64,000 nt of DNA from a virus (IMGVR_UViG_3300028603_000017:32001-96000), one strand, 5' to 3'; positions 9,758 through 34,303 are shown, numbered from the stretch's first letter. Made by a program: numbers and translations. The notes: a model not told the origin generated them from the sequence alone.

Positions 9758-10224
9758 GACATATTGCTAAATTCTCAGATAAAACCAAAGAGCAGTTAGC
9801 CAGCTTGCTATCTGTAGATCCAAAACTCATCCATATTGCTTTAGGTAAGTATTTGGCTGACACTATGGCAATGCCTACAGCTCCTATTGAAAATATAGCT
9901 GAGCTATATAAAGCATCGTTTCAAACAGCTAATTATGATACATTAGTTTATATAGCTGAAATATTACCTATTGATTTTAAAGCAGTAGATGAAAAAGCTG
10001 AAATCTTTTGGAAAGATAAATATCGAATGCTCTACGATATTTATTATAAAATACCTACTGCTCAAGATCATTATGGTTTATTCTTTGGTATTACCAATAA
10101 GAATATCTCTGTAGAGGAATTACAATTTATCAAAGAACATGCTTTAGATCTGTGTAGAATCTACAATAAGTTCTTTGATATTGTAACAGATATTAAAAAC
10201 CGAATTATTGAGGCTAGAAAATAA
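9754..10224 (+). CDS. Virion protein (phiKZ gp85 position)
   Basis: Translationally coupled in the head operon; synteny. Confidence 0.55.
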   Translation: MRHIAKFSDKTKEQLASLLSVDPKLIHIALGKYLADTMAMPTAPIENIAELYKASFQTANYDTLVYIAEILPIDFKAVDEKAEIFWKDKYRMLYDIYYKIPTAQDHYGLFFGITNKNISVEELQFIKEHALDLCRIYNKFFDIVTDIKNRIIEARK

Positions 10225-12311
10225 TGAACCTGAATGCAGATGCTGGTGAGAACATTACGTTTGATCATTTGTTTAATGAAAATCCAGATCAATTGGATCT
10301 GGTAGACAATACGGATCAAATCAATCCTAAGCAGCCTAATAAAGATACTTTAGTTATCGTTAATACAGATGGCCAGTCAGATCCTGCGAAACCTACAGCA
10401 ACAGAGCTTTTTGGTAGTCCTTTAGTTAAAAACGAATTACCTAACTTTAATGCTGAATTTATTGATGTTACTAAAAACAACTACAATACAACAACGGATC
10501 TCATTGAAGTTTATAATGGCTTAATTCAAGCCAATGGAGTATCTAAAGAAGATATTTCATTAGTAGATTCTATCTCTCCTGGTTTTATCAATGATAAAAA
10601 TCCTATTGGTTTTTATACAGAAGAAAGATCTAAAACTCAATATAAGAAAGCTTTAGAATCTTTAGATAAAGAAATAGATGCTAGGATTGGCATTATTGCT
10701 CAAGCATCTATTGATTATCTAGATAAAGCTCATGAAAAGTATTCAGCTTTAATTTCTTTATTGGAAAAAGACATTATTGATAAAGTTGTTTCTTTACAGC
10801 TAGAGGTACAAGCTTTATCTCTTAAAGTCAATAAAGAAGATAAACATATCAATGAAACATTAGAATCTACTGTAGGTAGATACGTTGATCAAGACTGTGA
10901 TTATTATAAAAAGCTACCGTCCAACATTAATAAAGCGATGATGGAGCTATCTAACGTCTTTGGTCCAGGAGACTCTTTCCTATACAAACTATCAGCTTTG
11001 TATCGCTCTCAGCTAAATACTGATAGTGAGACTTGGTTTACAATAGGTGATAGTAGGGAATTAACTTCTGTCCATAAAGAGCGTCCTTATTTTGGTTTAG
11101 TACAAACCGATAAGACACATGGTTGTGAAGACGCTATTCATAGTCTACATATCCACACAACACTAGCTATTGGTGCTGATACATTAGATCAGATAAAGAC
11201 GTTAACTGGTGCAGCTATTGGTGTCGTTACTGACTTTCCTACGTATAAGGAACAAATTAAACTCTTATCTAGCTCTGCTGATAAACCTAAAGATAAGATT
11301 TTAGAAGAACTCTATGGTCTTAGTTCAGCTAACTCTAAAGACGCTTTAGTTGTTCTAACTATTGTAAACTTCTTAGAAACCTTTATCTGCTATCTAGAGA
11401 AACTAAAAGCTGTTTACTCTGCTATTTCTGATCGTAAAAGTATTTCGACAGAAAGTAGAAAAGAAAAATATAAAGTATCTAAAGAAGGTTTCTTTGATCT
11501 CTTCAAGAAAAAGAAGAAAGAAGAACCTAAAGATAAGTCTTTAAAAGAAATTATAAAAGATAATATTAAACAAGTAGAAGATAACACTGAGGATCAAATA
11601 AAAGTAACTTATAATAAGTTAAATGATTCTTTCAAACTTGATCAATTAGAAAAAGAATTACTCTTATTGAAGAAATGTAGAGATATTAATTTAAAATATT
11701 TAAACGAATATCCGAAATGGTTAAATTCGTATTATAAAGTGTTATCTAAAATACCACGTAATAGAGATGAGATTTTAAAGATATATGCAAAATGTCGTTT
11801 TGAAGCAGATTCTTTAATTTCTAAAGAATATAAAACACTGCCAAATCTGAAAAAAGAAGTTACTAATAATGAAAAAATAGTTACTTCTAAGAATAATGTC
11901 TTTAAGATAATTTTGTCTGCGTCAGCTCTTGAGACAGCCAGAGAAGCAATGAGCTTTGATGAATATGATTTTGTTAGTATTCCTTATGTTCAAATAAAGA
12001 TCTTATCTGAAGACAAACCTGAAGAAACAAGCATTCAAATAAATAAGAAGAACCTTTTAGATATATTAAACACATTACATGAACTATGTGACGTTGAGCA
12101 GGAATTTAATGAAACTCCTCTTAAAAATAATATAAGTGATGTCGCTTTTGATCTACAGGAGTTATCTGAAGATTCGCGAGACGATGAAGAATATGTGACT
12201 ATGGGACATGGGGCTGGTGAAGATTACTATCAAGGCTTTCCTACTAATATCTTATTTGAAATTGAACGCACAATAGAAACTTTGTTTAAGAAAATAAACA
12301 TCAAATTCTAA
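10224..12311 (+). CDS. Internal head protein (gp86 position) with an added C-terminal payload domain
   Basis: GVSKED...GFYTEERSKTQY..ALE N-domain; STE and SKE sites precede a second domain starting SKEGFFDLFK, which is shared with 33146..34303. Confidence 0.65.
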   Translation: MNLNADAGENITFDHLFNENPDQLDLVDNTDQINPKQPNKDTLVIVNTDGQSDPAKPTATELFGSPLVKNELPNFNAEFIDVTKNNYNTTTDLIEVYNGLIQANGVSKEDISLVDSISPGFINDKNPIGFYTEERSKTQYKKALESLDKEIDARIGIIAQASIDYLDKAHEKYSALISLLEKDIIDKVVSLQLEVQALSLKVNKEDKHINETLESTVGRYVDQDCDYYKKLPSNINKAMMELSNVFGPGDSFLYKLSALYRSQLNTDSETWFTIGDSRELTSVHKERPYFGLVQTDKTHGCEDAIHSLHIHTTLAIGADTLDQIKTLTGAAIGVVTDFPTYKEQIKLLSSSADKPKDKILEELYGLSSANSKDALVVLTIVNFLETFICYLEKLKAVYSAISDRKSISTESRKEKYKVSKEGFFDLFKKKKKEEPKDKSLKEIIKDNIKQVEDNTEDQIKVTYNKLNDSFKLDQLEKELLLLKKCRDINLKYLNEYPKWLNSYYKVLSKIPRNRDEILKIYAKCRFEADSLISKEYKTLPNLKKEVTNNEKIVTSKNNVFKIILSASALETAREAMSFDEYDFVSIPYVQIKILSEDKPEETSIQINKKNLLDILNTLHELCDVEQEFNETPLKNNISDVAFDLQELSEDSRDDEEYVTMGHGAGEDYYQGFPTNILFEIERTIETLFKKINIKF

Positions 12312-12420
12312 TTACGTTACTGATTCAACTGAAAATATATATAGATTTATACAAGAATATAACATAAGACAGTTTTCTGCTGTTTTAGACTTTGTTAAAG
12401 CATCTATGCGACAACATTAA
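12298..12420 (+). pseudogene. Orphan C-terminal fragment of an internal head-protein paralogue
   Basis: Startless frame (TSNSNYVTDSTENIYRFIQEYNIRQFSAVLDFVKASMRQH*) ends like the AMISYAGQSIKQYQ* and AATEYVGQSLKLY ends of nearby paralogues. Confidence 0.55.
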
Positions 12421-12485
12421 ATAAATACATCATACACTCTAGATAGGGTTAAACCCTATCTAGAGTGTATGATGTATTTATTTAA
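12417..12485. terminator. Perfect 69-bp palindrome (CATA/TATG family, copy 5)
   Basis: 34-bp arms with a 1-nt centre; contains the TAA stops of both convergent frames. Confidence 0.85.
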
Positions 12486-15433
12486 GCACCTACAAATTGA
12501 TCACCCAAATTGTGTTCAATGAAATTGATGTTGATATCCTCAACTACAATTCTATCACCGTTAGGTAGAGCAGTTAGCTTCTTACCAATAGAGAGTCTAT
12601 CACCCTCATTAAGAATCGTGATAGTATTGATGTTAGCAGATCCACCTAATCCAGTAATAGCTACACTAATTACATCTTCACCATAAATGGATCTTAGGTG
12701 TGTAATAATAGCGCTATTGCTAACAACGTTATTGACTAAGAGATTATCTATTTCTCTGATAGTAGAATCATTCAAGTATTTTCTGAGTTCAGCATTTTCA
12801 TATACTGACTTTTTGACATACAGATGAACATTAAAGACTTGATTGGCTTGAATGTTCATCACTTGTGATTGATCAGCTAAAACCTTAATCGTGCCTAGAT
12901 TGGTCTTAGGATACAAATAGATTCTGGTCTGATCTAATGATCTTTGATTAAAATCACCTAGTTCATTAACTACCCAGTTGACAATAGCGTCCGTCATTTG
13001 TTTTCTATAAGTAGCAGCAGAGCTATCGTTAGCTAACAAATAAACACCGTCAATAAAGAATAGTTCCATTTGCCTTAGGATACTGGATCCACCCAAAGGT
13101 ACAGGTTTACCATTTTCATCTAAAACAACATCACCAGCTTTATGTTTGTATTCTATTAAACCATCTTGACCAATAACAGGCTCACCCTTGTGGTACAAGA
13201 TATTGTAAGTGATTTGACCTAATTCATTAATTTTAAAAATAGAACCAGTCTCAGGATCTGTTTCATAGATATCGTTTTCATATACCTTAGGCTCATCCAT
13301 GGTATAAGTCTGGTATTGAGCAGATTGTAATACAGATCTAGATCTTTTCCACAGATAATCTAAACTGGTACCAAACTTAGTCAATAGAGTCTCATGGTTT
13401 AACCCTACTGCTGTACTGGGAGCTGTTACTCTATTGATCACATCATCAATAGCTGTCGTAGACCAATTAGGATCTAAGGATTCATCTAGATAATAAACAA
13501 TATCAAACCTTTGATTCAAAAGAGCGTATACGCTTCTGTCATCAGTATCGAAATAGTTAAAATTTAGAAACTGTAAATTATGATCAGCGTCAATATCAAA
13601 ATTTGATTGTAAATCAAATTCAAAGATAATCTCATTATCAGCAGCAGCAATAGCGGTGCCATTAATAGAGCATCTAACACCATTTTCAGGTATAAAAGAT
13701 ATCTGTGCGCCTACTTTACTCATAGGTAAAGCTTTCAGAGCATCATTGCTCTTTATCTTTGTTCTGATCTTAAAACCAGTATCAACTCTGATAATGTCAA
13801 AAGCTGACGTATTGATCTCTAAACCCGTACTGTCATTTTGATCCACGAAAGTCAAAGACTCAATCTTAGGATCATCTAAATGATAAGCTCTTAATTCAAA
13901 TTCATTACTGCTAGAGTCTAGTACGTAATAAAATGGATTATAAAGATACTTAACACCACTAACAGCTTTGACAAAAGCTTCATTGGATAAAACCATCAAA
14001 GATGATTTATCCTGAAGAGACAGTAAATTAATAATACCGTTTTCATTAACGAATAGAGTATTAGACGGAATAGTCAGTCTATTGCCGTTATTTCTAATGA
14101 AAGGATAATTCGTTAATGCATCCATAGATGAGATAAAGGTTTCAATACTAGAGTTACCAGCAGTAATGAGCTTTTCATCAAATGGGTCAGGCATTTGCCT
14201 GGTAGCTAAATAGATACGGTTAGTCACCACATCTACATTCTTAACAATAGAGTAGTTATTATTGCTTAAAAATGACTCTAGCTGTACATTGGTAATAGGT
14301 AGCTGTTGTGGACCAATGCTATTTTTAATGACTCTATCTCTGAGCTCATCAAATGTTAAAGCATTTCTGCCACCATCAATCATTTCAGCAGAATAAGCAA
14401 ATATCGTACGAATAGCTGACAGTGGTGCAGTAAATGCATTCATCTCAGATCTATCAATAGCGTACCATTCAGTGACAAAACTCTCTGGTGTATAAGTCGC
14501 TAAAGATATAACCAATCTACCTTTGGTATCGTAAATATCTGTTCTGATAGAACCGGTGATTTGATTGGTGGTAAAATAAACCTGAGGAATATAGACATTC
14601 AAAGTCTTTTCAGAGCTATTGACCTTCAGTACTGCTGTAGGTGTTTTGTTGTCATAAACCTGATCAGTGTGAGTCGTCTTTATTTCTTTCCACTTATTAG
14701 CAGTAGAGTTAGACTTATTCCATACTCTGGCATAATAAAATTCGTCTGTATAACTGTACGTTCTATTAAACCCACGAGTTACAGTAGTTTCTTCTGTGAA
14801 GGTTTCAATCTTGAATTGTTCAGCATGTACTTCAAGATATAACCATTCATCATATCCAGCAGGATACAGATCAGATGCTATTTTTCTAACATCCCACTTG
14901 ATAATGTTAGTCGTTAGTTCTTTTAAGGGATTGGTTTGGTCTGTATTGTAAACGATTTGTAGACCACCGTGCTTTAGCTCTCGTATCTCTACAGGGTAGA
15001 GCATTGAAAAAACAATATCGTTAACTGTAAAGAAAGTATTTCTAGGAATAACCAGTTTTCTGATACCTGTAGAAATATCAGTTACCATATTCTCTAGTAT
15101 TTCTGCTTTTCTAGCTACAATGGTAAACTTAGTACTAGCAGGTACTGCAAACCTATCGATAAAGTCTTCATCACTCATGTGAATATAGATATCGTCTTCA
15201 GTTTGAGCTACAGCAGGATATTGTCTTCTGGTATTGACTTCATTTTGTACCATAAATGCTGCTGTATGGACAGCAGCATTTTCTAAACTGAATACAAAAG
15301 GATTGGTAGCATCAACGAGTTCTACTTCACCATTTAATATAGCGCCCAAGTGTTCAGTAACAACTTGCTGAATGGCACTAGGGTTATATCTAAATCTTAA
15401 TATATTGTCTTTTAAACTATTGACAGTACTCAC
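12482..15433 (-). CDS. Large tail/baseplate structural protein (phiKZ gp87-like)
   Basis: 983 aa; NPSAIQ...DATNPFVF.LE, RRQYP.VAQT.DD.Y.HMSD and GGRNALTFDELRDRVI (baseplate-wedge-like); synteny. Confidence 0.7.
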   Translation of the reverse strand: MSTVNSLKDNILRFRYNPSAIQQVVTEHLGAILNGEVELVDATNPFVFSLENAAVHTAAFMVQNEVNTRRQYPAVAQTEDDIYIHMSDEDFIDRFAVPASTKFTIVARKAEILENMVTDISTGIRKLVIPRNTFFTVNDIVFSMLYPVEIRELKHGGLQIVYNTDQTNPLKELTTNIIKWDVRKIASDLYPAGYDEWLYLEVHAEQFKIETFTEETTVTRGFNRTYSYTDEFYYARVWNKSNSTANKWKEIKTTHTDQVYDNKTPTAVLKVNSSEKTLNVYIPQVYFTTNQITGSIRTDIYDTKGRLVISLATYTPESFVTEWYAIDRSEMNAFTAPLSAIRTIFAYSAEMIDGGRNALTFDELRDRVIKNSIGPQQLPITNVQLESFLSNNNYSIVKNVDVVTNRIYLATRQMPDPFDEKLITAGNSSIETFISSMDALTNYPFIRNNGNRLTIPSNTLFVNENGIINLLSLQDKSSLMVLSNEAFVKAVSGVKYLYNPFYYVLDSSSNEFELRAYHLDDPKIESLTFVDQNDSTGLEINTSAFDIIRVDTGFKIRTKIKSNDALKALPMSKVGAQISFIPENGVRCSINGTAIAAADNEIIFEFDLQSNFDIDADHNLQFLNFNYFDTDDRSVYALLNQRFDIVYYLDESLDPNWSTTAIDDVINRVTAPSTAVGLNHETLLTKFGTSLDYLWKRSRSVLQSAQYQTYTMDEPKVYENDIYETDPETGSIFKINELGQITYNILYHKGEPVIGQDGLIEYKHKAGDVVLDENGKPVPLGGSSILRQMELFFIDGVYLLANDSSAATYRKQMTDAIVNWVVNELGDFNQRSLDQTRIYLYPKTNLGTIKVLADQSQVMNIQANQVFNVHLYVKKSVYENAELRKYLNDSTIREIDNLLVNNVVSNSAIITHLRSIYGEDVISVAITGLGGSANINTITILNEGDRLSIGKKLTALPNGDRIVVEDININFIEHNLGDQFVGA

Positions 15434-15453
15434 GATATTTATCCAAACATTAT

Positions 15454-16566
15454 TTAAGCAAATGTATCATCGATGATTGATGTACCTAAGGCTGCCATAG
15501 CTTGATCGAATTGAGCTTTCTTTGTGTTATAATGATCAATTTCAATCCACCACTGTAATTCATAGCTCTCAGGATTTATTCTAGGATAACCTCTGTTATT
15601 AAAGAGTTTCAAATATTCATACGGAATAGCTATCATCAAGGAGTCTCTGCGATCATCCCGCATAGCTGTGTTAAAGGTAGATACCAGTTTGTTAAATGCC
15701 CAAACTAAAATATCGTCATTATAAATAGCACCATAGCACTTAAATGGTATAGCTATTTGTGCATTTACATCATTATAAGGTTTTTCAGAATTGAAGTCAA
15801 ACTTACCAGCTATTGGATCCGCTATTGGAAAAGCAGCACCAGTAGCCGCAATGCTCTGAACATATCTTTTTGATGAATCTAATACCAGTCTATAAATACG
15901 GGTATTATAGTCAATAACATTACCAACAATATAATCAGGATAGGGTAGCAGTGTTCCTTCAAAGACCGCAGCCATATAGTGAGCCCAATAAAAGAACATA
16001 GAAGTAATGGGATCACCTCTTAAATTCCTGAAAGTCGCAGTGATATCGTATGATGTGTAATTTTTGACCACACCATCTACCATACCCCATTCTTCTTTAT
16101 ACATACCAGCTTCTGATCCTGAAGTAGGTACAGTAATATCTGGCCAACCACTCATGCTAATTAAGTTATTAGTGAGTAATGGTAAAAATGGGTTTTTCAT
16201 GTCTGTAAAAGGACATGCTTCTGGACCTAATCTTCTTGTCTCAGGATTTTTAGTACTGTACCCATCCATGATCCTAGGATCTAATTGGGTGCGTATATAT
16301 CTTTGGTATGACTTGGTATCTGCCGCTAATAACGGAATCATGATCCGCTCATTTCTAAGATTGGCAGTCGTCAGGTTAAGCTGTGGTCTGGTAAAGAATG
16401 TTAACCCGTATTGATCTTTATTAATTGGCACAGCAGATGCAATCTGCCTGTGATTTATGCCGTATAAATTGTCTATAATAGCACGAGACATGGTGCTACC
16501 CAAATTCATTTGGGTAATGTCATCAATGCTAAATGGAACTAACGGCTGACCGTCTTCGACACTCAT
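15454..16566 (-). CDS. Tail/baseplate structural protein (phiKZ gp88-like)
   Basis: YGINHRQ, GLTFFTRPQLNL, SMSGWPD and IDYNTRIYRLVLD blocks; synteny. Confidence 0.7.
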   Translation of the reverse strand: MSVEDGQPLVPFSIDDITQMNLGSTMSRAIIDNLYGINHRQIASAVPINKDQYGLTFFTRPQLNLTTANLRNERIMIPLLAADTKSYQRYIRTQLDPRIMDGYSTKNPETRRLGPEACPFTDMKNPFLPLLTNNLISMSGWPDITVPTSGSEAGMYKEEWGMVDGVVKNYTSYDITATFRNLRGDPITSMFFYWAHYMAAVFEGTLLPYPDYIVGNVIDYNTRIYRLVLDSSKRYVQSIAATGAAFPIADPIAGKFDFNSEKPYNDVNAQIAIPFKCYGAIYNDDILVWAFNKLVSTFNTAMRDDRRDSLMIAIPYEYLKLFNNRGYPRINPESYELQWWIEIDHYNTKKAQFDQAMAALGTSIIDDTFA

Positions 16567-16605
16567 TTTGAATAAAACCTTTTTTTTTCTGCTACAGGAA
16601 TAACT

Positions 16606-17709
16606 ATGGATCCCATTGCTACGTCACAGACCGCTGGTGCTGTACTCAATACAATTAAAGACGTTGTCAAATATGCAGTTAAGGCATCAGGCAATGTAGC
16701 ATACACCGATGTGTCTAAATCTCTAAGAGTTGAGCCTATCGTTATCATCTCTCAGGATTTAACCAATACTGAATTCATGCCTGATGTGATGCAGTCAGTG
16801 CAAAATCTATTTGTAGGTTATTATCTACAGGCTATTTCTTTGATTGGTAATATCAATACTGTTAAAGCTATTAAAGTATTAGATAAACTCAATCCTAATT
16901 CAAGTGTAGTTAATAGATCTTGGATGTATGGTTTTGAAAACTATAAGTTTAAACTGCCTAGTGTTAAAGTTCCTCAAGTAACTCTAGAGTCTTTTGGTAA
17001 TGAAAATTATACCGCTAAAGTATTTGAGAAAGATATCAATACTCGTATCAATGAAAATGCTTCGTTGTCTGTAGGTAAGATCTTTAACGTTAGTTTAAAA
17101 GTACCTATTAATGCCGATAAGGTAGAAGATGTAACTGTACCTGTGAGTGTTAGACTCATGGTAAATCAAGTCAGTGAAAAAGCTATTGTTTCTATGCTGA
17201 CGATGATGAGTCGTGATACGACTTTCAAAGAAAGATGGCATGCTTACCGAGCCGGTAAGATTTCTTTCATCAAAGATTTGGTGTTGTGCAATGATCTGAT
17301 TAAAGACGCTAAGCGAGTCATGCAAAATGATAAGGACGGCGTTATTACTCAGATCTTCCAAAGATCTACCAACAGTAAGCTCAACTCTTTATTTGGCTCT
17401 AGCGGTCTTAATCTGGCCAGTGCTACAAACATATATGTCATTAGTAAAGAAGTGGCAGACGCTATTGAAGCTAAACTCACTAGCAAGTTGTCTAATTTTA
17501 AAACAAGAGAAGAACTGCTCAAGAGTGGTTATTGCATGATTTTGGCTGTGGTAGATAAAACGTGGGAGCGTGTTACTTTCTATCATAGAGGCATTGCTGC
17601 TAGCTCTAGTGTTGGTATCAAAGATATCAAAGCCAGCAACAAAGGCAATGGTCCCGATGTTACTGAGATCATGAAAGCTATTTTGATCGGTAATCAACCT
17701 CCTATTTGA
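16606..17709 (+). CDS. Inner-body/head protein (phiKZ gp89-like)
   Basis: RVEPIV, YYLQAISL, LDKLNP, TLES cleavage site and ERWH.YRAG.I.FIKDL; divergent from the gp88-like gene. Confidence 0.75.
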   Translation: MDPIATSQTAGAVLNTIKDVVKYAVKASGNVAYTDVSKSLRVEPIVIISQDLTNTEFMPDVMQSVQNLFVGYYLQAISLIGNINTVKAIKVLDKLNPNSSVVNRSWMYGFENYKFKLPSVKVPQVTLESFGNENYTAKVFEKDINTRINENASLSVGKIFNVSLKVPINADKVEDVTVPVSVRLMVNQVSEKAIVSMLTMMSRDTTFKERWHAYRAGKISFIKDLVLCNDLIKDAKRVMQNDKDGVITQIFQRSTNSKLNSLFGSSGLNLASATNIYVISKEVADAIEAKLTSKLSNFKTREELLKSGYCMILAVVDKTWERVTFYHRGIAASSSVGIKDIKASNKGNGPDVTEIMKAILIGNQPPI

Positions 17710-22560: not shown

Positions 22561-22588
22561 TATTGATTTGATTGTTGGATTTATAAAA

Positions 22589-23944
22589 ATGGCTAAGAAA
22601 TTAATAATTGATCTAGAGAGTTTAAATGAAGATCCTAAGAAGGTCTTCGAAGATTCCGTGCATGAAGATCTCGCTGCCTTAATTGGTGAAGACGAATACG
22701 ATGACATGGAAGTAAAGGGCATGGAAATTGTCCTAGAGCAAATTGCTGAGGAGATTTCCACTGAACTGGCTGAAAATGATCGCGTAGCAGATATCGCTGA
22801 AAACCTAAGCGATGTAGCTGATGTATTAGAGAATTCTGGTAATGACCAGATTACTCCTACTGAAGCACAACTAATTGCTACCAGTGCCAATATGGCTGTA
22901 GCTGGCACCGATGGTGATGCCGCTGATATCGCACCTGCTCTAGAAGCCTTTAAAGATAAATCGTTAGCTATTGAACAACTTCGTATGAAGCAACAAGTAG
23001 CTATCGAGGGCATTATGGATAGCGTCAAGAATGTAGCGCAAAAGATAGGTTCTTATATTAAGGGTCTATTTAGTTTTGCTTATAAGATGGAAAACCGTAT
23101 TAAAGATTTAAAATCTAAAGTAGCAGAACTGGATTCTAAACCCAATAAAGAGATTACAACGAAACTAAACAAGTTTTATGCTCTTAAGAAAAATGAAAGT
23201 GAGTTCGTTGGTTCTGCTGAAGAATATAAATCGCTATTGACAAAAACTGTAACATTCTTTGATAGCTTTTCTACCTTAGTCATAAAGAGCGTAACTAACT
23301 TTACTAATAGTTATAAAAACTATTATAAAACGTTACCTGGTACTGACGCTACTTTTAAAGAAGCTTCTCGTCTTTATACTCTATATATGGATACCAGTAA
23401 AGAAATTGTAAATCTTCCTGGTATTAAAGAAATTCCTACCCGTGACTCCAAGGTTAAGAAGTATCGTTCTGAATACCTGCTTGGCGGTGCTGCTGTAGAT
23501 GCTCAGATTTATAAGGATGTTCCGGTTAGTGAAGAAAACATTCCTGAAATGAAGAACGCTGTAGATAATACCGGTGTTATGTTTAAGAAGTGGGATGCCA
23601 AAGATATCAGTAAGTCAAAAGATAAAACTATTGATTTCAAAGTCAATAAGAATTATCTAATCGACATTATTGCTCAAGCTGAAAAAGCTTTAGGAATCTT
23701 TAAAAGATTCTTAGATGGTGCTTACAAGTGGAATTCTGTTTTGTCAATTATGGATGACGATAAAATAGATTTTGCTACTAAATTTCTTAGTTTACATACT
23801 CAAATTGTAAACAAAGGAACTAATCACACGAATACCTACATTCGTTACGCCAGAGAGTATGCTAAAGTTTTGACTGATTATCCCTTGGATGTAGTTCAGA
23901 AACTAGTTAACGCAAAAGAGTGGGATAAAGCTGCGGCTGAATAA
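22589..23944 (+). CDS. phiKZ-like internal head protein paralogue
   Basis: Start MAKKLIIDLES; ANMAVAGTDGDA..IAPALEAF and VAIEGI propeptide sites. Confidence 0.8.
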   Translation: MAKKLIIDLESLNEDPKKVFEDSVHEDLAALIGEDEYDDMEVKGMEIVLEQIAEEISTELAENDRVADIAENLSDVADVLENSGNDQITPTEAQLIATSANMAVAGTDGDAADIAPALEAFKDKSLAIEQLRMKQQVAIEGIMDSVKNVAQKIGSYIKGLFSFAYKMENRIKDLKSKVAELDSKPNKEITTKLNKFYALKKNESEFVGSAEEYKSLLTKTVTFFDSFSTLVIKSVTNFTNSYKNYYKTLPGTDATFKEASRLYTLYMDTSKEIVNLPGIKEIPTRDSKVKKYRSEYLLGGAAVDAQIYKDVPVSEENIPEMKNAVDNTGVMFKKWDAKDISKSKDKTIDFKVNKNYLIDIIAQAEKALGIFKRFLDGAYKWNSVLSIMDDDKIDFATKFLSLHTQIVNKGTNHTNTYIRYAREYAKVLTDYPLDVVQKLVNAKEWDKAAAE

Positions 23945-24030: not shown

Positions 24031-24222
24031 GTGAGTTTCTCCAAAAGATTTAAATTAGATTTTGGTTTATAGGGAAGAATAAAGTCAAACAATCGTCTTG
24101 TTAAGAACAACATTTTTGCCAATGTAAATACAAGCGATATAGACAAAGAAGTAATAGAATACAGAACAATTATAAATTCTAACTTAGAACAGTTAGCAAA
24201 ATACTACATTGAGACTAAATAG
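24031..24222 (+). pseudogene. Collapsed internal head-protein paralogue (leader plus C-end) with an internal amber stop
   Basis: RBS aggga then GTG; MSFSKRFKLDFGL*(TAG 24070-72)GRIK...LEQLAKYYIETK*. The leader matches MSFAKRF of 21073 and 31867. Confidence 0.6.
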
Positions 24223-27252: not shown

Positions 27253-27255
27253 TAA

Positions 27256-27867
27256 ATGACGTTATCTAAGCCAGTAGGTTCTAGTGTTGATATGTCAGTA
27301 CCTAGCCATGAATATATCTTCAAACGTATGTTCATGTGTGTTGTCTCTCAAATGGATATCACCAGTAAAGAATACCTAAAGAAATTTGGTATGCCTACTA
27401 CTGGTGATCCCAATATTGACAGAGAGATGGCAAATCAACTCATTACAACATACAAAACCATAGCTGATATGGTGGATCTATTCAGACAAGGCGTTACAGT
27501 CAGAGTGCCAAAACAACAAGACTGTAAAACTATATATGAGTACGTAGACTACCACATTCAGTCTTGGGCTCAAGCTATTCAAAATGGATTAAATCTAGGT
27601 AATGCTCCGTTAGAAGACTTAATAGAGATGGATAAGTTTGCTACCAAACTGTATCCGTATGCTCTAGATAATAAGCTCATTATGGAAAACTCTTCTGTAT
27701 TTGTTCAGCAATTAGGTAACAATTTCATTACCCACGATAATGTATTGGGTTCTATGAAGTCACCTACACGCATATTAGAAGAATCTGGTCTAGATGAAAA
27801 TGGACAATTGCCTCAAAGAGAGTCTTATGCTGATATCTTTATCAAAAGAGGTAAAGGATGGAAATAG
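27256..27867 (+). CDS. Conserved phage protein (phiKZ gp100-like)
   Basis: FG.PTTG, TIADMV...G and APLEDL...DKFA motifs; synteny. Confidence 0.6.
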   Translation: MTLSKPVGSSVDMSVPSHEYIFKRMFMCVVSQMDITSKEYLKKFGMPTTGDPNIDREMANQLITTYKTIADMVDLFRQGVTVRVPKQQDCKTIYEYVDYHIQSWAQAIQNGLNLGNAPLEDLIEMDKFATKLYPYALDNKLIMENSSVFVQQLGNNFITHDNVLGSMKSPTRILEESGLDENGQLPQRESYADIFIKRGKGWK

Positions 27868-29291
27868 AATCTACTGCCTTATTTCAAGAGATAAAAGCTA
27901 TTATCGATGATGGGCCTAAACCTGTTAACTATTACTATAAATGCTATTTTCTTATTGATGATAAGAAATATGAGCCTTTAAAGATTATTGATGTATTTCA
28001 TAAACGGAACTATGTTGAAGCTAGAGGTGATGAGAGATTCATCACCCTAGCTATTCCTATGGGTTTATGGTCTAAGATTATTTATCCAAAGCTCAATATT
28101 TTGGATATTACTTTGGTTAAAATACCTATTTATGAAATTGATGATAAAGAAAATCAAGAAGAAGAAATAGAAGAGATCAGATACACAGCTATTCCTGTAC
28201 CAGATTCAATACCTAATTTAACAGGTGATAATCTACAGAGATTCAGCATTGCTGCTTTGGATACCATGGACTTCTTTGAAGTTACATTTCAATTGGTAGA
28301 TAAAGGCTTAGAAGCATTAAAGATGGTCACAGTAGGTTCTGTTTTTAGACGTTGTAAAACAGAGGATGTTGTCAAAGGTATTTTAGCTAAAGAAAGATCT
28401 AAAGCCAAAACCATTACAGGAAAAGCTGTTGAAACGATTGATATGGTAGATGGCGATAATGATGATGAAATAGAGCATGTATTGATTCCTCAAGGCTTAC
28501 CCTATCTAGACGTACCTTTTTATGTGCAACAGCAATGTAATGGTGTTTATAATGCTGGAATGAATATCTATTATCAAAATAAAGGATTATTTGTTTATCC
28601 CCCATTTGATACAACCAGATATGATTCTGCTGATTTAAAAGCTACTATATTGAAAGTGCCTAAATACTCCTATTCGTATTTAGAAAGAACATACAGACAA
28701 GAAGGCGATATTGTTTATATCATAGGCACCAGTGATTCTAGTTTCGAAGATAAGTCATTTATCAATTCTAGAAATAGAGGTGACGGTATTCGCTTTGGCG
28801 ATGCTCGCTTTATCATGCGAGATGAATTGCTAGAGACCAAGGACAATAAAACCAAAATCGTTAGAAAAGACGTTAACCAAGAGTTTGTATCCAAAGATAA
28901 AAGTGATCAACCTGATTACCGTCAACAACTTTATGTTCCTTTATCTAAAGAACATATGAATGCCAATCCGTTTGTACAAAGATCCAGACTAGCACATATT
29001 AACGGTGCTATGTATCAAATTGATTGGCAAAACTCAAACCCTGATGTACTCATACCTGGAATGATGGTAAAGATCATTTATATGAGTAAACATGAATTTA
29101 GAGAACTGTATGGTGTATTAACACATGTAGTTACAAACACTCAGTTGTCTGGACAGGGTTTAAATTATACTAGACACATCACTAACTCATCTTTATTCAT
29201 ATTCAGCACTATGCTCACTGAGCAAGAGCAAGAATTTGATGAGATAGACGAAAGTGTTATAACTGCTTGGGAAAATTATGAAATGGGCTAG
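27858..29291 (+). CDS. Tail/baseplate hub-like structural protein (phiKZ gp101-like)
   Basis: IPQG...DVP.Y.Q...GVY..G...YYQ, ERTY and W.NS.PD.L.PGM motifs; synteny. Confidence 0.65.
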   Translation: MEIESTALFQEIKAIIDDGPKPVNYYYKCYFLIDDKKYEPLKIIDVFHKRNYVEARGDERFITLAIPMGLWSKIIYPKLNILDITLVKIPIYEIDDKENQEEEIEEIRYTAIPVPDSIPNLTGDNLQRFSIAALDTMDFFEVTFQLVDKGLEALKMVTVGSVFRRCKTEDVVKGILAKERSKAKTITGKAVETIDMVDGDNDDEIEHVLIPQGLPYLDVPFYVQQQCNGVYNAGMNIYYQNKGLFVYPPFDTTRYDSADLKATILKVPKYSYSYLERTYRQEGDIVYIIGTSDSSFEDKSFINSRNRGDGIRFGDARFIMRDELLETKDNKTKIVRKDVNQEFVSKDKSDQPDYRQQLYVPLSKEHMNANPFVQRSRLAHINGAMYQIDWQNSNPDVLIPGMMVKIIYMSKHEFRELYGVLTHVVTNTQLSGQGLNYTRHITNSSLFIFSTMLTEQEQEFDEIDESVITAWENYEMG

Positions 29292-29607
29292 CAATATCAT
29301 CCATCGATTTATCAAATGGCTTATTTCTTTATTCTTTAAACGAAATCATAAGTACGGTGTTAGTTTTGATGTTGATATCAATTTAAGTAACCTAATGTCA
29401 CCATTACCAAATGTAAATACATTTTACGATTTGGCTAGAGATGTTGGTATCTTTGAAGTGGTTGATGTTGATGCTAAAGAATCTATTGTAGTTATTAGAG
29501 AAGTAGGTACTGATACAGAATATAAAATAGATTCTGAGTTATTTATTATTCTGTTTGTTTCTAAGAGTGATGCCAGCTCTAATTTTGATTTATTAAAATA
29601 TAAATAG
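29278..29607 (+). CDS. Hypothetical protein
   Basis: 109 aa; overlaps the upstream stop and ends at a hairpin. Confidence 0.65.
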   Translation: MKWASNIIHRFIKWLISLFFKRNHKYGVSFDVDINLSNLMSPLPNVNTFYDLARDVGIFEVVDVDAKESIVVIREVGTDTEYKIDSELFIILFVSKSDASSNFDLLKYK

Positions 29608-29609
29608 CA

Positions 29610-29649
29610 CATACTCCCAGTAGGTATTAACCTACTGGGAGCTATGCCG
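29610..29649. terminator. CATA/TATG-family hairpin (copy 9)
   Basis: cata-ctcccagtaggt/acctactgggag-c-tatgccg. Confidence 0.8.
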
Positions 29650-29669
29650 TTAAAAAGTAGATTCAAAAA

Positions 29670-29697
29670 TATTTCAGTCACATATTGTAAACGTGAA
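29670..29697 (+). promoter_or_regulatory. Putative early (virion-RNAP) promoter
   Basis: tatttcagtcacatattgtaaacgtgaa aligns without gaps to 39313-39340; resembles the phiKZ early TATATTAC element. Confidence 0.6.
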
Positions 29698-29745
29698 TAG
29701 GAATACATATCTTCCGAAATCAACTCTTTAACCTGGAGAAAACAA

Positions 29746-29865
29746 ATGCAAGCCATCAAGAATTGGGGCAACAAGTTTGCCAAGCTGCCCATCGACAAAC
29801 AAGTCATTCTGGTTTGCGGCATCGCTTGTGCTGCTGGCTATCTCATCAATTCCATCAAGCGCTAA
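29746..29865 (+). CDS. 39-aa single-pass membrane microprotein (not in ORF track)
   Basis: RBS ggag; MQAIKNWGNKFAKLPIDKQVILVCGIACAAGYLINSIKR; C-ending codons. Confidence 0.7.
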   Translation: MQAIKNWGNKFAKLPIDKQVILVCGIACAAGYLINSIKR

Positions 29866-29896
29866 TCTAGCGCTCGACTCAAAAAGGAAAAAAACC

Positions 29897-30085
29897 ATGA
29901 ACTACGAAAACATGACCGACGAAGAAATCGCTGCGGACACTGCTGCGAAGCTGGAGTACTGCGATCCCAAAAAGAACAAGAACTGGAACCGTGCTCTGTT
30001 CTGTGTTCGTATGCTCGCTGACGCTAACATCTACCTGGCTTGCGTCAGCTTGGGCATCACGCTGCACAAGGTCATCAAAGGCTAA
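29897..30085 (+). CDS. 62-aa protein with a hydrophobic C-terminus
   Basis: RBS aagga; MNYENMTDEEIAA...NIYLACVSLGITLHKVIKG. Confidence 0.7.
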   Translation: MNYENMTDEEIAADTAAKLEYCDPKKNKNWNRALFCVRMLADANIYLACVSLGITLHKVIKG

Positions 30086-30123
30086 GTCTACCCACATCAA
30101 TCAAACCTCTGAAAGAAACTACC

Positions 30124-30279
30124 ATGACCCGTGAACAACTCATTAACGTAAACAAGATCGCCACCAATCAAGCTAAGAACCTCAAGACCAAGAAGAAAAT
30201 CATCGTCCTCTATGGCGCGGTGGCTTTGGCCACCACCAGCGTGCTGACTTTCTTGATCTACAAGGATTTGAAGAGCTGA
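30124..30279 (+). CDS. 51-aa tail-anchored membrane microprotein
   Basis: Leader gaaagaaactaccATG; KKKIIVLYGAVALATTSVLTFLIYKDLKS. Confidence 0.7.
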   Translation: MTREQLINVNKIATNQAKNLKTKKKIIVLYGAVALATTSVLTFLIYKDLKS

Positions 30280-30376
30280 ATCTCTCACCGTGAGCAAGAC
30301 CAAGTCTCACGGTGATTGGAATACCAATCCAACCATCGTGGGATTTACTTCCCAAAACAATTCTAGGAGAACTACC

Positions 30377-30520
30377 ATGTTTGAACAACGTCCCTTTGAG
30401 ATCCTCTTGACCTACTTGGCCGCCATGGCCATCGGCTCCATCGCTACCGTGGGTTTCCGCTCTTACGTGGACTGGAAAATAAAGCAAGCCAAAAAGGATT
30501 GCAATGAGCAAAAAGTCTAA
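30377..30520 (+). CDS. 47-aa single-pass membrane microprotein
   Basis: RBS aggag; MFEQRPFEILLTYLAAMAIGSIATVGFRSYVDWKIK... Confidence 0.7.
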   Translation: MFEQRPFEILLTYLAAMAIGSIATVGFRSYVDWKIKQAKKDCNEQKV

Positions 30521-31538
30521 CACAACCAATGCTCGTAAGTTCTATCGTCGTCGCCAAATTTTGAAAGAGGAGCTCGAAATGGCAAAGAAAAACTGCAAGA
30601 AGCAAGCGATCAAAGGGTTTTCGCAACTGGAGAGCATGAATTTGCAGTCCATGCTTGCTGAAAAGCAGATCGCTGAAAACGGAGCTGACAACTTCGAATT
30701 CATTGCTGAGTGCGATGGAGTGCGTGCGAGCTTTTCGATCAATATTCCGATCGACAAAAATAAGCCCTTTCCAGAGGATCTTCTTCGGGAAGTGGTAACC
30801 TATGGTGTTTGCTGCAAAGACAGCGAATTCCATCTGATGGAAACGATGCTCAAGAGCATCGACCACAGTGGTGTGCAAACCATGGTTCAGAATTTCGTGA
30901 TGTATGCCAACGACATGCGTAAGGAGTTCGAGAGTATGGAATGCTCGAAATCCCAAACGATCGAGTCCTTGGATCAATTGAACGAAAAGCTGAAGGATCT
31001 CGCACCCAACTCCATCTACATCGCCCAGCGCAATAAGCGCCAAAACCAAACTCAACCCAACCAGGAGCTCAACATGGAAAACCAAACCCAACAACCCCAA
31101 GTCGAAGAAATCCAAGCCACCGCAGCCGAGGCTGGTGAGCCGGTCACCCAAACCGTGAGCACCGAAGAAGCTGCAACCACCAATCCCCAACCCGAAACCA
31201 CCATCATCAAGGAAGAAACCATGACCGACAACGTCAACCAGACCATCAACGAAGCTGCCGCTGCTGCTTACAATGCTGCCAAGGCTGCTGCTGACGCCGC
31301 CAGCTCCGCTGCCGATACGACCAAGGAAACCACCAACAAGACCAAAGCCGTTACCACAAAGGCTGCCAAAGAAACCAAGGGCTTCTTCGCTCGCCACCAA
31401 AAGAAGCTCTACATCGGTCTGGGTCTGATCGGTCTGGGCGGCGCTGCCTACTTCGGCTGGAAGAAGTTCGGCAGCTTGATCGATGCGGGTGAAACCGCTG
31501 TCGAAGTGGTGGTCGATACCGCTGGTGCTGGCAGCTAA
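30504..31538 (+). CDS. Membrane-anchored protein with probable internal starts at 31074 and 31221
   Basis: C-terminal TM KKLYIGLGLIGLGGAAYFGWKK; in-frame ATGs preceded by aggag and aaggaa RBSs. Confidence 0.7.
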   Translation: MSKKSNTTNARKFYRRRQILKEELEMAKKNCKKQAIKGFSQLESMNLQSMLAEKQIAENGADNFEFIAECDGVRASFSINIPIDKNKPFPEDLLREVVTYGVCCKDSEFHLMETMLKSIDHSGVQTMVQNFVMYANDMRKEFESMECSKSQTIESLDQLNEKLKDLAPNSIYIAQRNKRQNQTQPNQELNMENQTQQPQVEEIQATAAEAGEPVTQTVSTEEAATTNPQPETTIIKEETMTDNVNQTINEAAAAAYNAAKAAADAASSAADTTKETTNKTKAVTTKAAKETKGFFARHQKKLYIGLGLIGLGGAAYFGWKKFGSLIDAGETAVEVVVDTAGAGS

Positions 31539-31578
31539 CCAACCCCAATTTATCTAGCTAACAACTCTAGATAGATTA

Positions 31579-31642
31579 ACATATATACAGCAGGAGTTCC
31601 TTTGAACTCCTGCTGTGTTATATGAATTATCTTTTTTTTTTG
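31579..31642 (+). terminator. CATA/TATG-family hairpin (copy 10) with T-tract, closing the early island
   Basis: acatata-t-acagcaggagttc/gaactcctgctgt-gt-tatatg, then a T10 run. Confidence 0.8.
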
Positions 31643-31694
31643 TTTATTTTCACTTACACACTATGCGATTATCTGATGTCTTAATATTCAAAAA

Positions 31695-31841
31695 GTGTGT
31701 CACTTCTTTGTGAGAGATGGTAAAATCGAATACTGTAGTGATAGTATTCATGATCTAAAAGGTAAAACTGTAGATATGGTACAAAAGTATAAATATTATA
31801 GTTTAGGACAGGGTGGGCTCCCCTGTCTTCTATTATCATAA
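31695..31841 (+). pseudogene. C-terminal remnant resembling DUF6527-type small Cys/His proteins
   Basis: VCHFFVRDGKIEYCSDSIHDLKGKTVDM fits the recalled pattern CH.FV.DG.I....D..H.L.G.TV.L; the N-terminal half is missing (stop upstream). Confidence 0.5.
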
Positions 31842-31866
31842 TGGGTGTGGAAACAAGGTAACCAAA

Positions 31867-33093
31867 ATGAGTTTTGCTAAACGATTTAATCTAGCTGCCG
31901 CTTTAGAACAAGTTACAGCTGAGTGTGATCCTGCTGAAGTCTTTGAAGATAACATTGATGCAGGTCTGGATGATCTAGAAGAACTACAAGAAAGCGTTGA
32001 GTTTTCTGTAGATGAAATAGGTAAAGGTCTAGAAGGTATTGCTGACCTAATTGGTCTATCCAATAAGCTCCAAAACAAAGAAGGTTGTGGTGTTGCTATT
32101 GAGAGCTATAGTGATATGGCCAATATTGCTTATGCTTCTATTCTAAAGCGTATTGGTTTAGAAGACGGTGAAATCTTTGACAAAGATGATCCTACTGGTA
32201 AAGATGCTAAAGATATTACTCCTAAGCCTAGTGGTAAGATCAAGCAAATGGTAGAAAAGATCATTGAGATCGTTAAGCGTATTTGGGAAAAAGCTAAAGA
32301 ATATTTTAAGAAAGCTTTTGACTATGTCAGCAATAGAATCAATAAAACGATTAAGTATTTAGAAGATCTTAATGATTCTGCAAAGATTGCTGTTTTAAAA
32401 GCTGCTAGTATTCCCAATATTGAGATTGAGAATCCTGCTTTCTTTACTGATAAGAAATTAATTACAGTCGGTGATGTATTTGAATCGACATACCTAAGTG
32501 ATTATGGTAAGAATTCAGATAAAATTGGTAAACATTTTGAAGCTTATGCATTTGCCAAATCTGTGTACACCCCTGATCAAGCTCAAAATCTCTTAAATAG
32601 GCTAAGTGGTAAAAGAGAAAAAGACGGACTTTATGTTACTCCGGAAGGTTATATTCATATTGAAGAACCATCCGGAGACGATGGTGTAACTAAAATTAGT
32701 TTCTCAAAAAACAAAGAAGAGCAGCCAGTAGCTAAACAAACTCTTGGAATGATTGCTAAATTTCCAGCATCTATTGATATTACATTAGATATCTTTAACT
32801 CGATTCGTAAACGTTATAATGATTTTTATAAAGAAGCTGAGAGAAAAATAAATGAAGAAATTCCTGACTATTTAGCTCTTCTTCAAAGCAATATTAAGAA
32901 TTCTAAAAATGAAGAGGATGCACAAAGATCTATAGACGTAGCTAGACGTATTAAACAAAACTTAACTTATCTAACGTCTATCAGAAATATGCATAACTCT
33001 TATACAGGTGATTTGGTATTCATGATTAACTACTATGTTAGTTTTATTAAAAAAGCTGCGGATGTTAATCAAGCCAAAAAAGCCACAGCTTAA
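31867..33093 (+). CDS. Dispersed phiKZ-like internal head protein paralogue
   Basis: True start MSFAKRFNLAAALE, with 24 bp identical to the start of 21073; VAIES site; IIEIVKRIWEKAKEYF amphipathic helix. Confidence 0.8.
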   Translation: MSFAKRFNLAAALEQVTAECDPAEVFEDNIDAGLDDLEELQESVEFSVDEIGKGLEGIADLIGLSNKLQNKEGCGVAIESYSDMANIAYASILKRIGLEDGEIFDKDDPTGKDAKDITPKPSGKIKQMVEKIIEIVKRIWEKAKEYFKKAFDYVSNRINKTIKYLEDLNDSAKIAVLKAASIPNIEIENPAFFTDKKLITVGDVFESTYLSDYGKNSDKIGKHFEAYAFAKSVYTPDQAQNLLNRLSGKREKDGLYVTPEGYIHIEEPSGDDGVTKISFSKNKEEQPVAKQTLGMIAKFPASIDITLDIFNSIRKRYNDFYKEAERKINEEIPDYLALLQSNIKNSKNEEDAQRSIDVARRIKQNLTYLTSIRNMHNSYTGDLVFMINYYVSFIKKAADVNQAKKATA

Positions 33094-33099
33094 TTAACA

Positions 33100-33145
33100 C
33101 GACATACACTCCAGGCAGATTAAACCTGCCTGGAGTGTATGTTGC
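33100..33145. terminator. CATA/TATG-family hairpin (copy 11), between convergent genes
   Basis: 17-bp stem acatacactccaggcag/ctgcctggagtgtatgt. Confidence 0.8.
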
Positions 33146-34303
33146 TTAATTTTTATCTAACATCTTTATCAGAACATTAAAATTTCTTTCTTCATATTTA
33201 ACAGTATGATGATCTTCTACCCAAGAGCCTATATTGAAAAAGAAATCATCTATTCCATAAAGATGTTCTGGAACACCTTCACTAAACTGAAAAATTACAT
33301 CATCAATGTCGTCTATGAGATTATCATAGATGTCTGTAGACTTTTTCATGATTGCAGAACCACGTCTTGGATCTACAGTATCGATCATATCCTTAATACT
33401 AATAAGGACATTGACTATATCGATATTTACCTCAATGTGTTTAATTAGGTTTTGTTTAGAAACAGTTAAATCTTTAGTATTTAATGGACTCTCTACATCA
33501 AACCACACCTCTAAGATGGGTGAACAATTGAAATCTAAATATTGAGTTAAATTCTTAGTTAGTTTACCATAATCTGTTTCACCCACTAGTGATGAATCAA
33601 AAGTAGTAATACTAAATACTTTATTTCTATCTACTAGTTTGTACGATTCAATAGAGTTATTGTTGTTTTTTTCTTTAGTTTTAGTTAGATTTGGTTGTGA
33701 TAATAAATTTTCTTTAATTCTAAAAAAACTTAGAATAAGATCTGCTGTTTGTTTATGTAATTTTTTATCAGCTTCTTTTTCTTCAACAAAATCAGTATTA
33801 ATTATCTTCTGACCTAATTTATGAACAGAATCTAAAAATTTAGGAACTTTCTTGTAATATTGTTCTATTGATTTTAAAGAATTAAGTAAGATATTCAAAC
33901 TATAGGTATAATCTTTAATATCAGTCAAATGATCAGGTATTGTTAATTTTAATTCTAAATCATTTTCTTTAATTTGTTTGACTTGTTGTAGAGTCTCAGA
34001 GAATTCCTTACTAAGACTTTTTAAAGTATCGTATTGATTTTCATGCTCTTTAATTTGTTTGATTTGTTCTAGAGTCTCAGAGAATTCCTTACTATGATTA
34101 TTTGTTTTTGTAGGAACAGACTCAACATGTTCTTTACTTGTATTCTTTGACTTAAACATATCAAAGAAACCTTCTTTGGATATTCCGTGCTTTATTTTAC
34201 GCTTTATTTTATTTATTCGCTTCTGATCAATGCGAATATCTGCAGCTTCGTTATTTATTTCTTCTAACGCTTGCGCTAGCGTGATTCTGGTACGAGTATT
34301 CAT
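33146..34303 (-). CDS. Putative internal head (ejection) protein with a short propeptide
   Basis: AQALEE and GISKEGFFDMFK; related to the C-terminal domain of 10224..12311. Confidence 0.65.
   Translation of the reverse strand: MNTRTRITLAQALEEINNEAADIRIDQKRINKIKRKIKHGISKEGFFDMFKSKNTSKEHVESVPTKTNNHSKEFSETLEQIKQIKEHENQYDTLKSLSKEFSETLQQVKQIKENDLELKLTIPDHLTDIKDYTYSLNILLNSLKSIEQYYKKVPKFLDSVHKLGQKIINTDFVEEKEADKKLHKQTADLILSFFRIKENLLSQPNLTKTKEKNNNNSIESYKLVDRNKVFSITTFDSSLVGETDYGKLTKNLTQYLDFNCSPILEVWFDVESPLNTKDLTVSKQNLIKHIEVNIDIVNVLISIKDMIDTVDPRRGSAIMKKSTDIYDNLIDDIDDVIFQFSEGVPEHLYGIDDFFFNIGSWVEDHHTVKYEERNFNVLIKMLDKN
33966..34094. repeat. Intragenic direct repeat, 2 x 48 bp, 81-bp period
   Basis: 33966-34013 vs 34047-34094 with 2 mismatches; encodes SKEFSETL.Q.KQIKE twice. 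Confidence 0.85.

Follow-up and report, generated by a model that had tools for sequence, protein, structure and literature searches.

Recombining mature domains behind conserved N-terminal parts in a predicted internal-head module of an uncultured phiKZ-like jumbo phage

Does a jumbo phage exchange the proteins that it carries in its head behind fixed, cleavable leaders? The question is raised by a locus of the virus record IMGVR_UViG_3300028603_000017 (261 kb, ~95% complete), of which bases 32001 to 96000 were analyzed here (64,000 nucleotides, referred to as the window; coordinates are those of the window, and genes are named by their lower coordinate). The source is an uncultured phiKZ-like, chimallivirus-like (nucleus-forming-type) jumbo phage. 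The original prediction for 10224-34303 was a polymorphic capsid-cargo system, in which short protease-cleaved leaders receive swappable payloads and leave orphan fragments behind. Our analysis makes it probable that the region is instead a phiKZ-like internal-head (inner body/ejection) module, composed of a leader-bearing family of PF12699-fold proteins and a GFFD subfamily that are addressed to the head, cleaved, and ejected, and whose mature domains recombine. The products of genes 10224, 33146, and 21073 are designated P0001, P0002, and P0003, respectively.

RESULTS

Strain differences are concentrated in the mature parts of two genes

Twenty public runs (landfill, sludge, wastewater, and compost) contain all or part of 10224-12480. 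The contigs, not the reads, of four runs were compared over 10000-29999; runs X18 to X22, which had small word shares, were left out. Long contig pieces were ~99% identical to the window or better (for example, 13 differences over 8.97 kb in run X3). Only two joints within these 20 kb were present in more than one run, and both lay inside genes that had been flagged in the original prediction, 10224 and 21073. Since the backbone is at least 99% identical, the position of the two joints supports recombination behind a fixed leader.

In gene 21073, the joint 21552 to 22471, with 912 letters replacing 918, was found in X3, X5, and X14 (X14 is a metatranscriptome run, and its 33-kb contig may be carried-over DNA). 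The alleles P0027 and P0028 were 97 to 98% identical to P0003 at residues 15-150, 63% identical at residues 151-215, and 26 to 32% identical at residues 216-440. P0026, an ortholog carried by a far more distant phage (gp86 49% identical), was 62% identical to P0003 at residues 216-440. A gene whose parts disagree in this way in their similarities bears the signature of recombination. The locus has at least three types of mature domain, mutually ~30% identical, and the alleles P0026 to P0039 all carry PF12699. The possibility that the alternative domains are copies of another paralog of this genome was rejected, all of them being closest to 21073.

In gene 10224, the joint 11417 to 12477, with 86 other letters between, was present on the dominant contig in all four runs. 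The fused form found in the window occurred on minor contigs only, in X3 (depth 11 versus 99) and X4. The 409-amino-acid (aa) alleles P0008 to P0011 were recorded on 20 contigs (2, 11, 6, and 1) versus three contigs for two 695-aa alleles. They match the long form to about residue 391, with single differences in three of them, and then end in DKLKSVYECICTTNVVSE; the C-terminal end of P0008 to P0011 reads ...YLDKLKSVYECICTTNVVSE. The C-domain of 10224 is absent from the dominant strain.

Recombination and gain or loss cluster in the mature domains, against near-identity in the leaders, in the propeptides, and across the remainder of the genome. The payloads are neither invariant nor inherited only vertically, and the two joints and the allele identities bear out the expectation that the parts behind conserved leaders vary by recombination among near-identical strains. 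The breakpoints were found at about residues 392-398 of the 10224 product and residues 150-215 of the 21073 product, not at the leader end or the GFFD junction, which speaks against the original prediction. Three of four allele combinations were consistent with the recorded contigs: fused with type A, unfused with type A (11,823 nucleotides), and unfused with type B (49,856 and 41,451 nucleotides), co-occurrence on one contig being read solely from equal longest-contig values. The longest-contig value of P0005 (49,856), a protein 59% identical to P0002, equals that of one unfused gp86 allele and of one type-B allele, so the 33146 locus may be a third variable locus.

An account of these differences by ordinary paralogy would dispense with any addressing role: the N-termini would be kept by descent and by constraint at the translation start, and the strain differences would be neutral mosaicism of fast-evolving structural genes. 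All of the proteins belong or may belong to one superfamily, and lysine-rich starts are often common to AT-rich phages, as this account would have it. It is nevertheless very unlikely, given that identity drops steeply inside gene 21073 although the strains are at least 99% identical elsewhere, that the mature domain in the window has its nearer counterpart in a distant phage, and that both multirun joints fall in these genes. The leader also occurs on a protein with another fold (see below), and cleaved propeptides are documented in relatives.

Gene 10224 encodes a gp86-type protein fused to a second domain

The 695-aa form was found on three contigs. P0006, a homolog encoded by another phage (413 aa, 46% identical), terminates where residue 409 of the 10224 product aligns, which marks the last 286 aa of that product as an addition. 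When 1.84 billion representatives were searched exhaustively with a profile, only one further, more distant relative was found, P0007 (763 aa), which has the same two-part build and the junction VSAE/GFFDSFKKK (the slash marks the candidate cut here and below). The two parts of gene 10224 are therefore genuinely fused, a gp86-type ejection protein being joined to an internal-head-protein-like domain. By the distances of the N-domain, P0001 groups with the unfused P0006 and the fused P0007 lies outside, in an unrooted comparison that sets no direction for the fusion. The full-length model of the 10224 product (predicted local distance difference test score, 43) was too poor for use.

The similarity of the gp86-type part to known phages was marginal (E 0.007 to FLC9 gp342). 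Three gp86-type homologs have a site near residue 110 of the form [VI]S[KR]E/D (VSKE/D, ISKE/D, and VSRE/D). phiKZ gp86, which is thought to be ejected, is cut at SQE-122, and 201phi2-1 gp148 is cut at SQE-113 (PMC5694885); by likeness to these sites, SKE-109 would be the maturation cut of the gp86-type part.

The GFFD domain and its junction define a small family

SKEGFFDLFK occupies residues 419-428 of the 10224 product, and in the 385-aa protein encoded by 33146-34303, SKEGFFDMFK spans residues 42-51 (bases 34180-34151). The presence of a SKEGFFD junction in both genes was thus confirmed, with the correction that gene 33146 lies on the minus strand, with its start at 34303. Around the motif, the two genes agree at about 21 of 22 bases, and the chance of such synonymous-codon agreement is ~0.03 to 0.04. 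In the four family members, positions P3-P2-P1 at the aligned junction are SKE, SKE, AHE, and SAE, and the junction is the only [SAG]xE site of that stretch kept in all four. The domains behind it align over their full length in all four members, and the same family therefore stands behind the junction in both window genes: where swapped payloads had been proposed, we found homologs of one small family. It is what precedes the GFFD domain that differs, a 44-residue leader in 33146 and a whole gp86-type protein in 10224. Together these proteins make up a diverged subfamily marked by (S or A)-x-E/GFFDxFK, which occurs as a stand-alone gene (33146-34303) and as a passenger on a gp86-type protein.

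The AlphaFold model of P0002 (predicted template-modeling score, 0.70) comprises a low-confidence stretch at residues 1-88, which includes the leader, the GFFD motif, and three more SKE sites, and a confident alpha/beta domain at residues 89-385. When this model was compared with BFVD by Foldseek, nearly all matches were internal head or virion proteins of the phiKZ type (E 4e-5 to 1e-2, probability ~1). The matches include four 201phi2-1 proteins of 613, 397, 489, and 367 aa, which are the lengths of the annotated gp246, gp247, gp157, and gp158. Foldseek comparison with PDB gave no match, and neither P0002 nor the 10224 C-domain had a Pfam match. With some reserve, the model suggests that the GFFD domain has the internal-head-protein fold in a far-diverged form. 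If it has this fold, all of the payloads belong to one superfamily and are not diverse effectors; the Foldseek matches and the PF12699 alleles thus speak against the original prediction of unrelated payloads. A Goslar preprint assigns a common predicted fold to phiKZ gp92-97, gp162, and gp163 and describes PF12699-fold proteins as abundant in virions and injected (bioRxiv 10.64898/2026.04.21.720040).

We also noted a tandem repeat, SKEFSETL[EQ]Q[IV]KQIKE, with three extra S-K-E sites at 34080-34230 on the minus strand (residues 58-110 of the 33146 product). The repeat is absent from P0005.

It may be asked whether GFFDxFK marks a protease junction at all. It could be a functional motif instead or in addition, such as a docking peptide or a membrane- or DNA-contact peptide (aromatics followed by lysines), with the [SAG]xE being incidental. 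This would agree with the position of the motif in the model, in a low-confidence stretch 40 residues before the folded domain, and with the occurrence of EGFFDxFKKK in unrelated AT-rich viral contigs, where it is preceded by DEE or KEE and not by [SAG]xE. In the family itself, all four members have E at P1 and either S (three members) or A (one) at P3, with P2 variable, which is the pattern of the phiKZ motif, and the mature end of SPN3US gp53 resembles GFFDLFK in form (see below). We consider the functional-motif reading unlikely, and the two readings are compatible with each other.

The EGFFDxFKKK decapeptide was found far above chance in unrelated AT-rich viral contigs (L008, L012, L013, L015 to L018, and L020 of IMG/VR, and L009, L010, and L014). 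It follows directly after the short starts (MKNIKTY-EGFFDFFKKK) of clustered small paralogous open reading frames adjoining split topoisomerase II genes, and it also lies inside acidic proteins of 700 to 900 aa on contigs with a phiKZ-type RNA polymerase subunit (phrog_3233). EGFFDxFKKK may be a portable short motif.

A short leader is common to several head-module proteins

The PF12699-fold members (gathering cutoff of the Pfam family, 27 bits) have a short basic leader with the first A-x-E at about residue 13 or 14, followed by a long acidic or low-confidence propeptide. The true start of gene 22568 is probably an inner ATG (MAKKLIIDLE). The 21073 product begins with the leader MSFAKRFGIVAAME/E, followed by an acidic propeptide, and the 31867 product begins with MSFAKRFNLAAALE/Q. 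After ATG, 24 bases encoding MSFAKRF are identical in the two genes, as the original prediction had noted, and they include the rare arginine codon CGA (7% of arginine codons). Given the MSFAKRF peptide, the chance of all synonymous codons agreeing is ~0.003 to 0.007. The two products can be aligned over ~170 aa (BLASTP E 9e-9, residues 1-172), and both match PF12699 (31867 just below the cutoff); they therefore are diverged, ancient paralogs rather than one tag on two unrelated cargoes or a leader with a swapped payload.

The same leader type was found outside the window, on a short (183-aa) internal-head-protein-like gene at genome position 110754 on the minus strand (MSFAKRFNIQASLE/Q). When a profile of the three MSFAKRF leaders was used, the first nonmember retrieved was the 266-aa gene at 63989-64789 on the minus strand (E 0.014), and every later start had an E of ~0.16 or worse. 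Leader profiles run against the 3274 candidate starts of the genome gave no further member (next-best E 0.09 to 0.24). The leader class comprises four genes and one remnant (24031), all with A-x-E at residue 13-14. A short leader ending in A-x-E, which matches the phiKZ-type (S/A/G)xE motif, is thus common to several head-module proteins, as predicted. The phage also encodes a phiKZ-type prohead protease (201phi2-1 gp268/phiKZ gp175 type; 41% identical, E 1e-43), which was detected by a search with 201phi2-1 gp268 and not by the PF03420 (T4 gp21) model.

The domain of the 266-aa protein belongs to phrog_14791 and lies near viral clusters that are automatically named CYTH-like (Atlas predicted structure; template-modeling [TM] score, 0.60 to 0.64 by query), with no match to Pfam CYTH in the protein or its homologs. 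Judged by this structural prediction, the domain is possibly CYTH-like and not internal-head-protein-like. The protein is a candidate packaged enzyme. Homologs are present in FLC9, RSF1, RP12, and Goslar. Leader-like N-termini also occur on those of FLC9, RSF1, and Goslar, and in RSF1 both the homolog and an internal head protein begin with MSF, so the pairing of leader and domain is old and not a recent swap.

One leader-bearing remnant lies in the module

The original prediction further described two relics. The first, at 24031-24222, is a single 63-codon frame interrupted by TAG, flanked by terminator-like hairpins (23954-23989 and 24205-24236), and located where phiKZ and 201phi2-1 have further internal head protein genes (gp96 and gp97). 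An estimated ~0.003 chance matches to the leader pattern are expected genome-wide, so the leader likeness at 24031 is beyond chance. The remnant was present in all four runs with one base change. The other claimed fragments, the C-end part of this remnant (24073-24222) and the whole of 12298-12420, scored no better against the phage's proteins than did shuffled peptides. The 10224 product and its homologs align through to their C termini, and therefore no displaced C-end is needed at 12298-12420. The relics are thus reduced to the leader part at 24031, and the notion that orphan C-end fragments accumulate fails, as these C-ends have no detectable similarity to anything.

These observations bear on the possibility of a system resembling polymorphic toxins, in which a fixed capsid-addressing leader receives unrelated effector cassettes and displaced orphans accumulate nearby. 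The exchange of the 21073 mature domain behind a 97 to 98% identical propeptide, with a similarity pattern that disagrees with the backbone, is of the kind that such a system would produce; so are the presence or absence of the 10224 C-domain, the same leader type on a protein without the internal-head-protein fold, and the leader-bearing remnant. We nevertheless hold this reading to be quite unlikely. The alternative domains are all homologs of one family whose best match in the genome is 21073 itself, the GFFD domains are predicted to share the internal-head-protein fold, and the pairing of leader and 266-aa-type domain is old. The breakpoints are at neither the leader nor the junction. We saw no immunity-like partner genes, the neighbors being conserved structural genes, and no array of orphan modules. 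The analogy with polymorphic toxins, as originally proposed, largely fails.

Setting of the module

The features of the region are listed in Table 1. The order of the genes parallels the head-internal modules of phiKZ (gp84-gp98) and 201phi2-1 (gp145-gp161). The G+C content of the window is ~35%. Neither megablast of 10224-22479 nor tblastn of P0001 and P0002 gave a match among GenBank phages, and scans of IMG/VR with P0001, P0002, alignment A3, and the pattern PL[IV]KNELPN yielded no relative. In JGI metagenomes, the same pattern occurred at seven loci, all unrelated.

Table 1. Features of the internal-head region and neighboring genes (window coordinates)
Feature	Coordinates	Strand	Description
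gp84 homolog	8447		Gene-order match
gp85 homolog	9754		Gene-order match
gp86 slot	10224	+	Between gp85 and gp87 homologs
695-aa fusion protein	10224..12311	+	gp86-type part (residues 1 to ~409), linker, SKE/GFFDLFK, C-domain (422-695)
SKE, residues 107-109	10542..10550	+	Candidate maturation cut of gp86-type part
Present/absent segment	11418..12476	+	End of gp86-type part, linker, whole C-domain, 110-bp spacer, hairpin
Junction SKE/GFFDLFK	11478..11507	+	Aligned across four family members
Terminator-like hairpin	12428..12474		Two-way, between convergent genes 10224 and 12482
gp87 homolog	12482	-	Gene-order match
gp88 homolog	15454	-	Gene-order match
gp89 homolog	16606		Gene-order match
gp90 homolog	17788		Gene-order match
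gp91 homolog	18674		Gene-order match
PF12699 internal head protein paralog, 546 aa	19354..20994	+	Pfam 39.8 bits
PF12699 internal head protein, 468 aa	21073..22479	+	Pfam 113 bits; phrog_2497 internal head protein
Replaced mature-domain segment	21553..22470	+	Same-length, very unlike allele in other strains
PF12699 internal head protein paralog	22568..23944	+	Pfam 55.5 bits
Remnant mini-gene	24031..24222	+	Ribosome-binding-site-like AGGGA, GTG-SFSKRFKLDFGL, TAG at codon 14, then 49 more codons
Conserved 527-aa gene	24302		phrog_3289
Head-tail joining protein	25885
Diverged internal-head-protein-like paralog, 408 aa	31867..33093	+	PF12699 22.4 bits, below cutoff
Stand-alone 385-aa protein	33146..34303	-	Leader MNTRTRITLAQALE/E, basic stretch, SKE/GFFDMFK, SKE-rich low-confidence stretch, folded domain 89-385
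Major capsid protein	37042
266-aa gene, 3' end in window	63989..64000, runs to 64789	-	Leader MSFKKRLLKAAME/Q and acidic stretch

Gene 33146-34303 is flanked by hairpins at 33102-33142 and 34643-34684. These and the hairpins at 12428-12474, 23954-23989, and 24205-24236 are long, near-perfect, and terminator-like, often with CATA...TATG ends or a CTAGATAG core, and they flank single genes and the remnant. The gp84 homolog 8447 (MNTMKKRLGLE/A) and the major capsid protein 37042 (MLFNKKIKAGGRRFGLE/G) both have a basic start followed by G-L-E, which may be a second leader type. Elsewhere in the window, four large adjoining paralogs (1013, 1017, 745, and 1733 aa) at 48756-62529 on the minus strand have the first ~450 residues in common (BLASTP E down to 1e-85) and diverge thereafter; they are probably fibre or baseplate proteins. 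The G+C content of 30001-32000 rises to 47% against ~35% for the genome, and the 344-aa gene at 30504-31538 in this stretch had no family match.

DISCUSSION

By analogy with better-studied relatives, the internal-head module might work as follows. The N-terminal parts would bring the proteins into the prohead, as in the proposal for SPN3US gp47 and as demonstrated for the T4 capsid targeting sequence (CTS), and the gp175-type prohead protease would cut the conserved [SAG]xE sites and remove the leaders. For the fused allele, the extra domain would enter the head attached to the gp86-type part, and a cut at SKE-421 would free the C-domain. The mature proteins would then leave with the DNA. The propeptides of the relatives have been proposed to act like the T4 CTS (PMC5694885; PMC10052503), and the PF12699 protein gp53 of SPN3US has its first cut at ARE-12 and the mature end (E)GWKETLK (PMC10052503). 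Capsid addressing, [SAG]xE cleavage, and ejection in the present phage would follow these precedents.

Several points weigh against this reading. Packaging, cleavage, and injection are predicted for this phage from its genes and from its relatives. Every cut in SPN3US other than that of the protease itself takes off an N-terminal piece (PMC10052503), and we found no precedent for the release of a C-terminal passenger by the protease in the phiKZ- and SPN3US-type literature consulted for comparison. The TM scores of the Foldseek matches of P0002 were only 0.3 to 0.43, with predictions on both sides, and hhalign of the GFFD domain against the phage's own internal head proteins gave a nonsignificant E of 0.087. 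Beyond the motif, the two window copies of the GFFD domain taken alone are weakly similar (BLASTP E 0.006, z 4.5), and their relationship is firm only via P0007. The leader of 33146 was not specifically retrieved by the MSF-leader profile (E 0.5 to 0.9). Finally, the strain data are drawn from contigs and not reads, so the allele frequencies are rough.

The pattern of variation suggests diversifying selection on injected proteins, as in an arms race. Within 20 kb, multirun structural differences are confined to these genes, an indication that whatever enters the cell with the phage in the first minutes is under strong diversifying pressure. A bolder version holds that the mature domains are injected counterdefence or host-takeover cassettes, shuffled behind a fixed capsid-addressing propeptide and also hitched to an ejection protein via the cleavable S-x-E/GFFD linker. 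This is possible, but we regard it as doubtful. If it were true, a set of alternative "first-minute" weapons would circulate in the phage population, and chosen cargo could be loaded into a jumbo-phage head by means of the leader or the linker. Natural allele sets for host-defense tests now exist in any case: gp86 with and without the fused domain, and one propeptide with three or more types of mature domain. The leader and the S-x-E/GFFD linker are a candidate packaging tag and cleavable joint for jumbo phages, for which we know of no equivalent of the T4 capsid targeting tool so far.

Among known systems, the internal head proteins of phiKZ, 201phi2-1, SPN3US, and Goslar (phiKZ gp92-97, gp162, and gp163; SPN3US gp53 and gp54) lie in the same neighborhood and belong to the same Pfam family. 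They share with the proteins described here a short N-terminal piece with the first AxE, long acidic propeptides, several paralogs, and a gp175-type protease. Unlike them, the present phage has a Pfam-invisible (S or A)-x-E/GFFDxFK subfamily, with one copy behind a gp86-type protein. Our literature search found no description of this subfamily, of its fusion to gp86, or of strain-level replacement of mature domains behind an unchanged propeptide. phiKZ gp86, 201phi2-1 gp148, and SPN3US gp47 occupy the same slot between gp85 and gp87, and the unfused form here has 409 to 413 aa, compared with 414 aa. The SxE at residue 122 or 113 of the first two corresponds to the conserved SxE near residue 110 here. 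The 274-aa extra domain of the window allele, which the commoner allele lacks, sets 10224 apart from the phiKZ gp86 type.

Polymorphic toxins (Rhs and contact-dependent inhibition systems) likewise have a conserved N-terminal part and recombining C-terminal parts. The present proteins differ from them in being predicted virion components, and no immunity genes, orphan arrays, or diverse toxin domains were seen.

In T4, the CTS MKTYQEFIAE is found on the internal proteins IPI to IPIII and on Alt, and the internal-protein locus of the T-even phages is variable. Compared with this system, the leader described here has no sequence likeness, the propeptides are far longer, the variable parts belong to one fold family, and the role in packaging is predicted. 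The two systems are alike in that a short N-terminal leader ending in a Glu motif of the head protease is present on several internal proteins and in that these proteins vary between related phages. As in T4, one short N-terminal peptide stands on otherwise different head proteins, one of its carriers having another fold.

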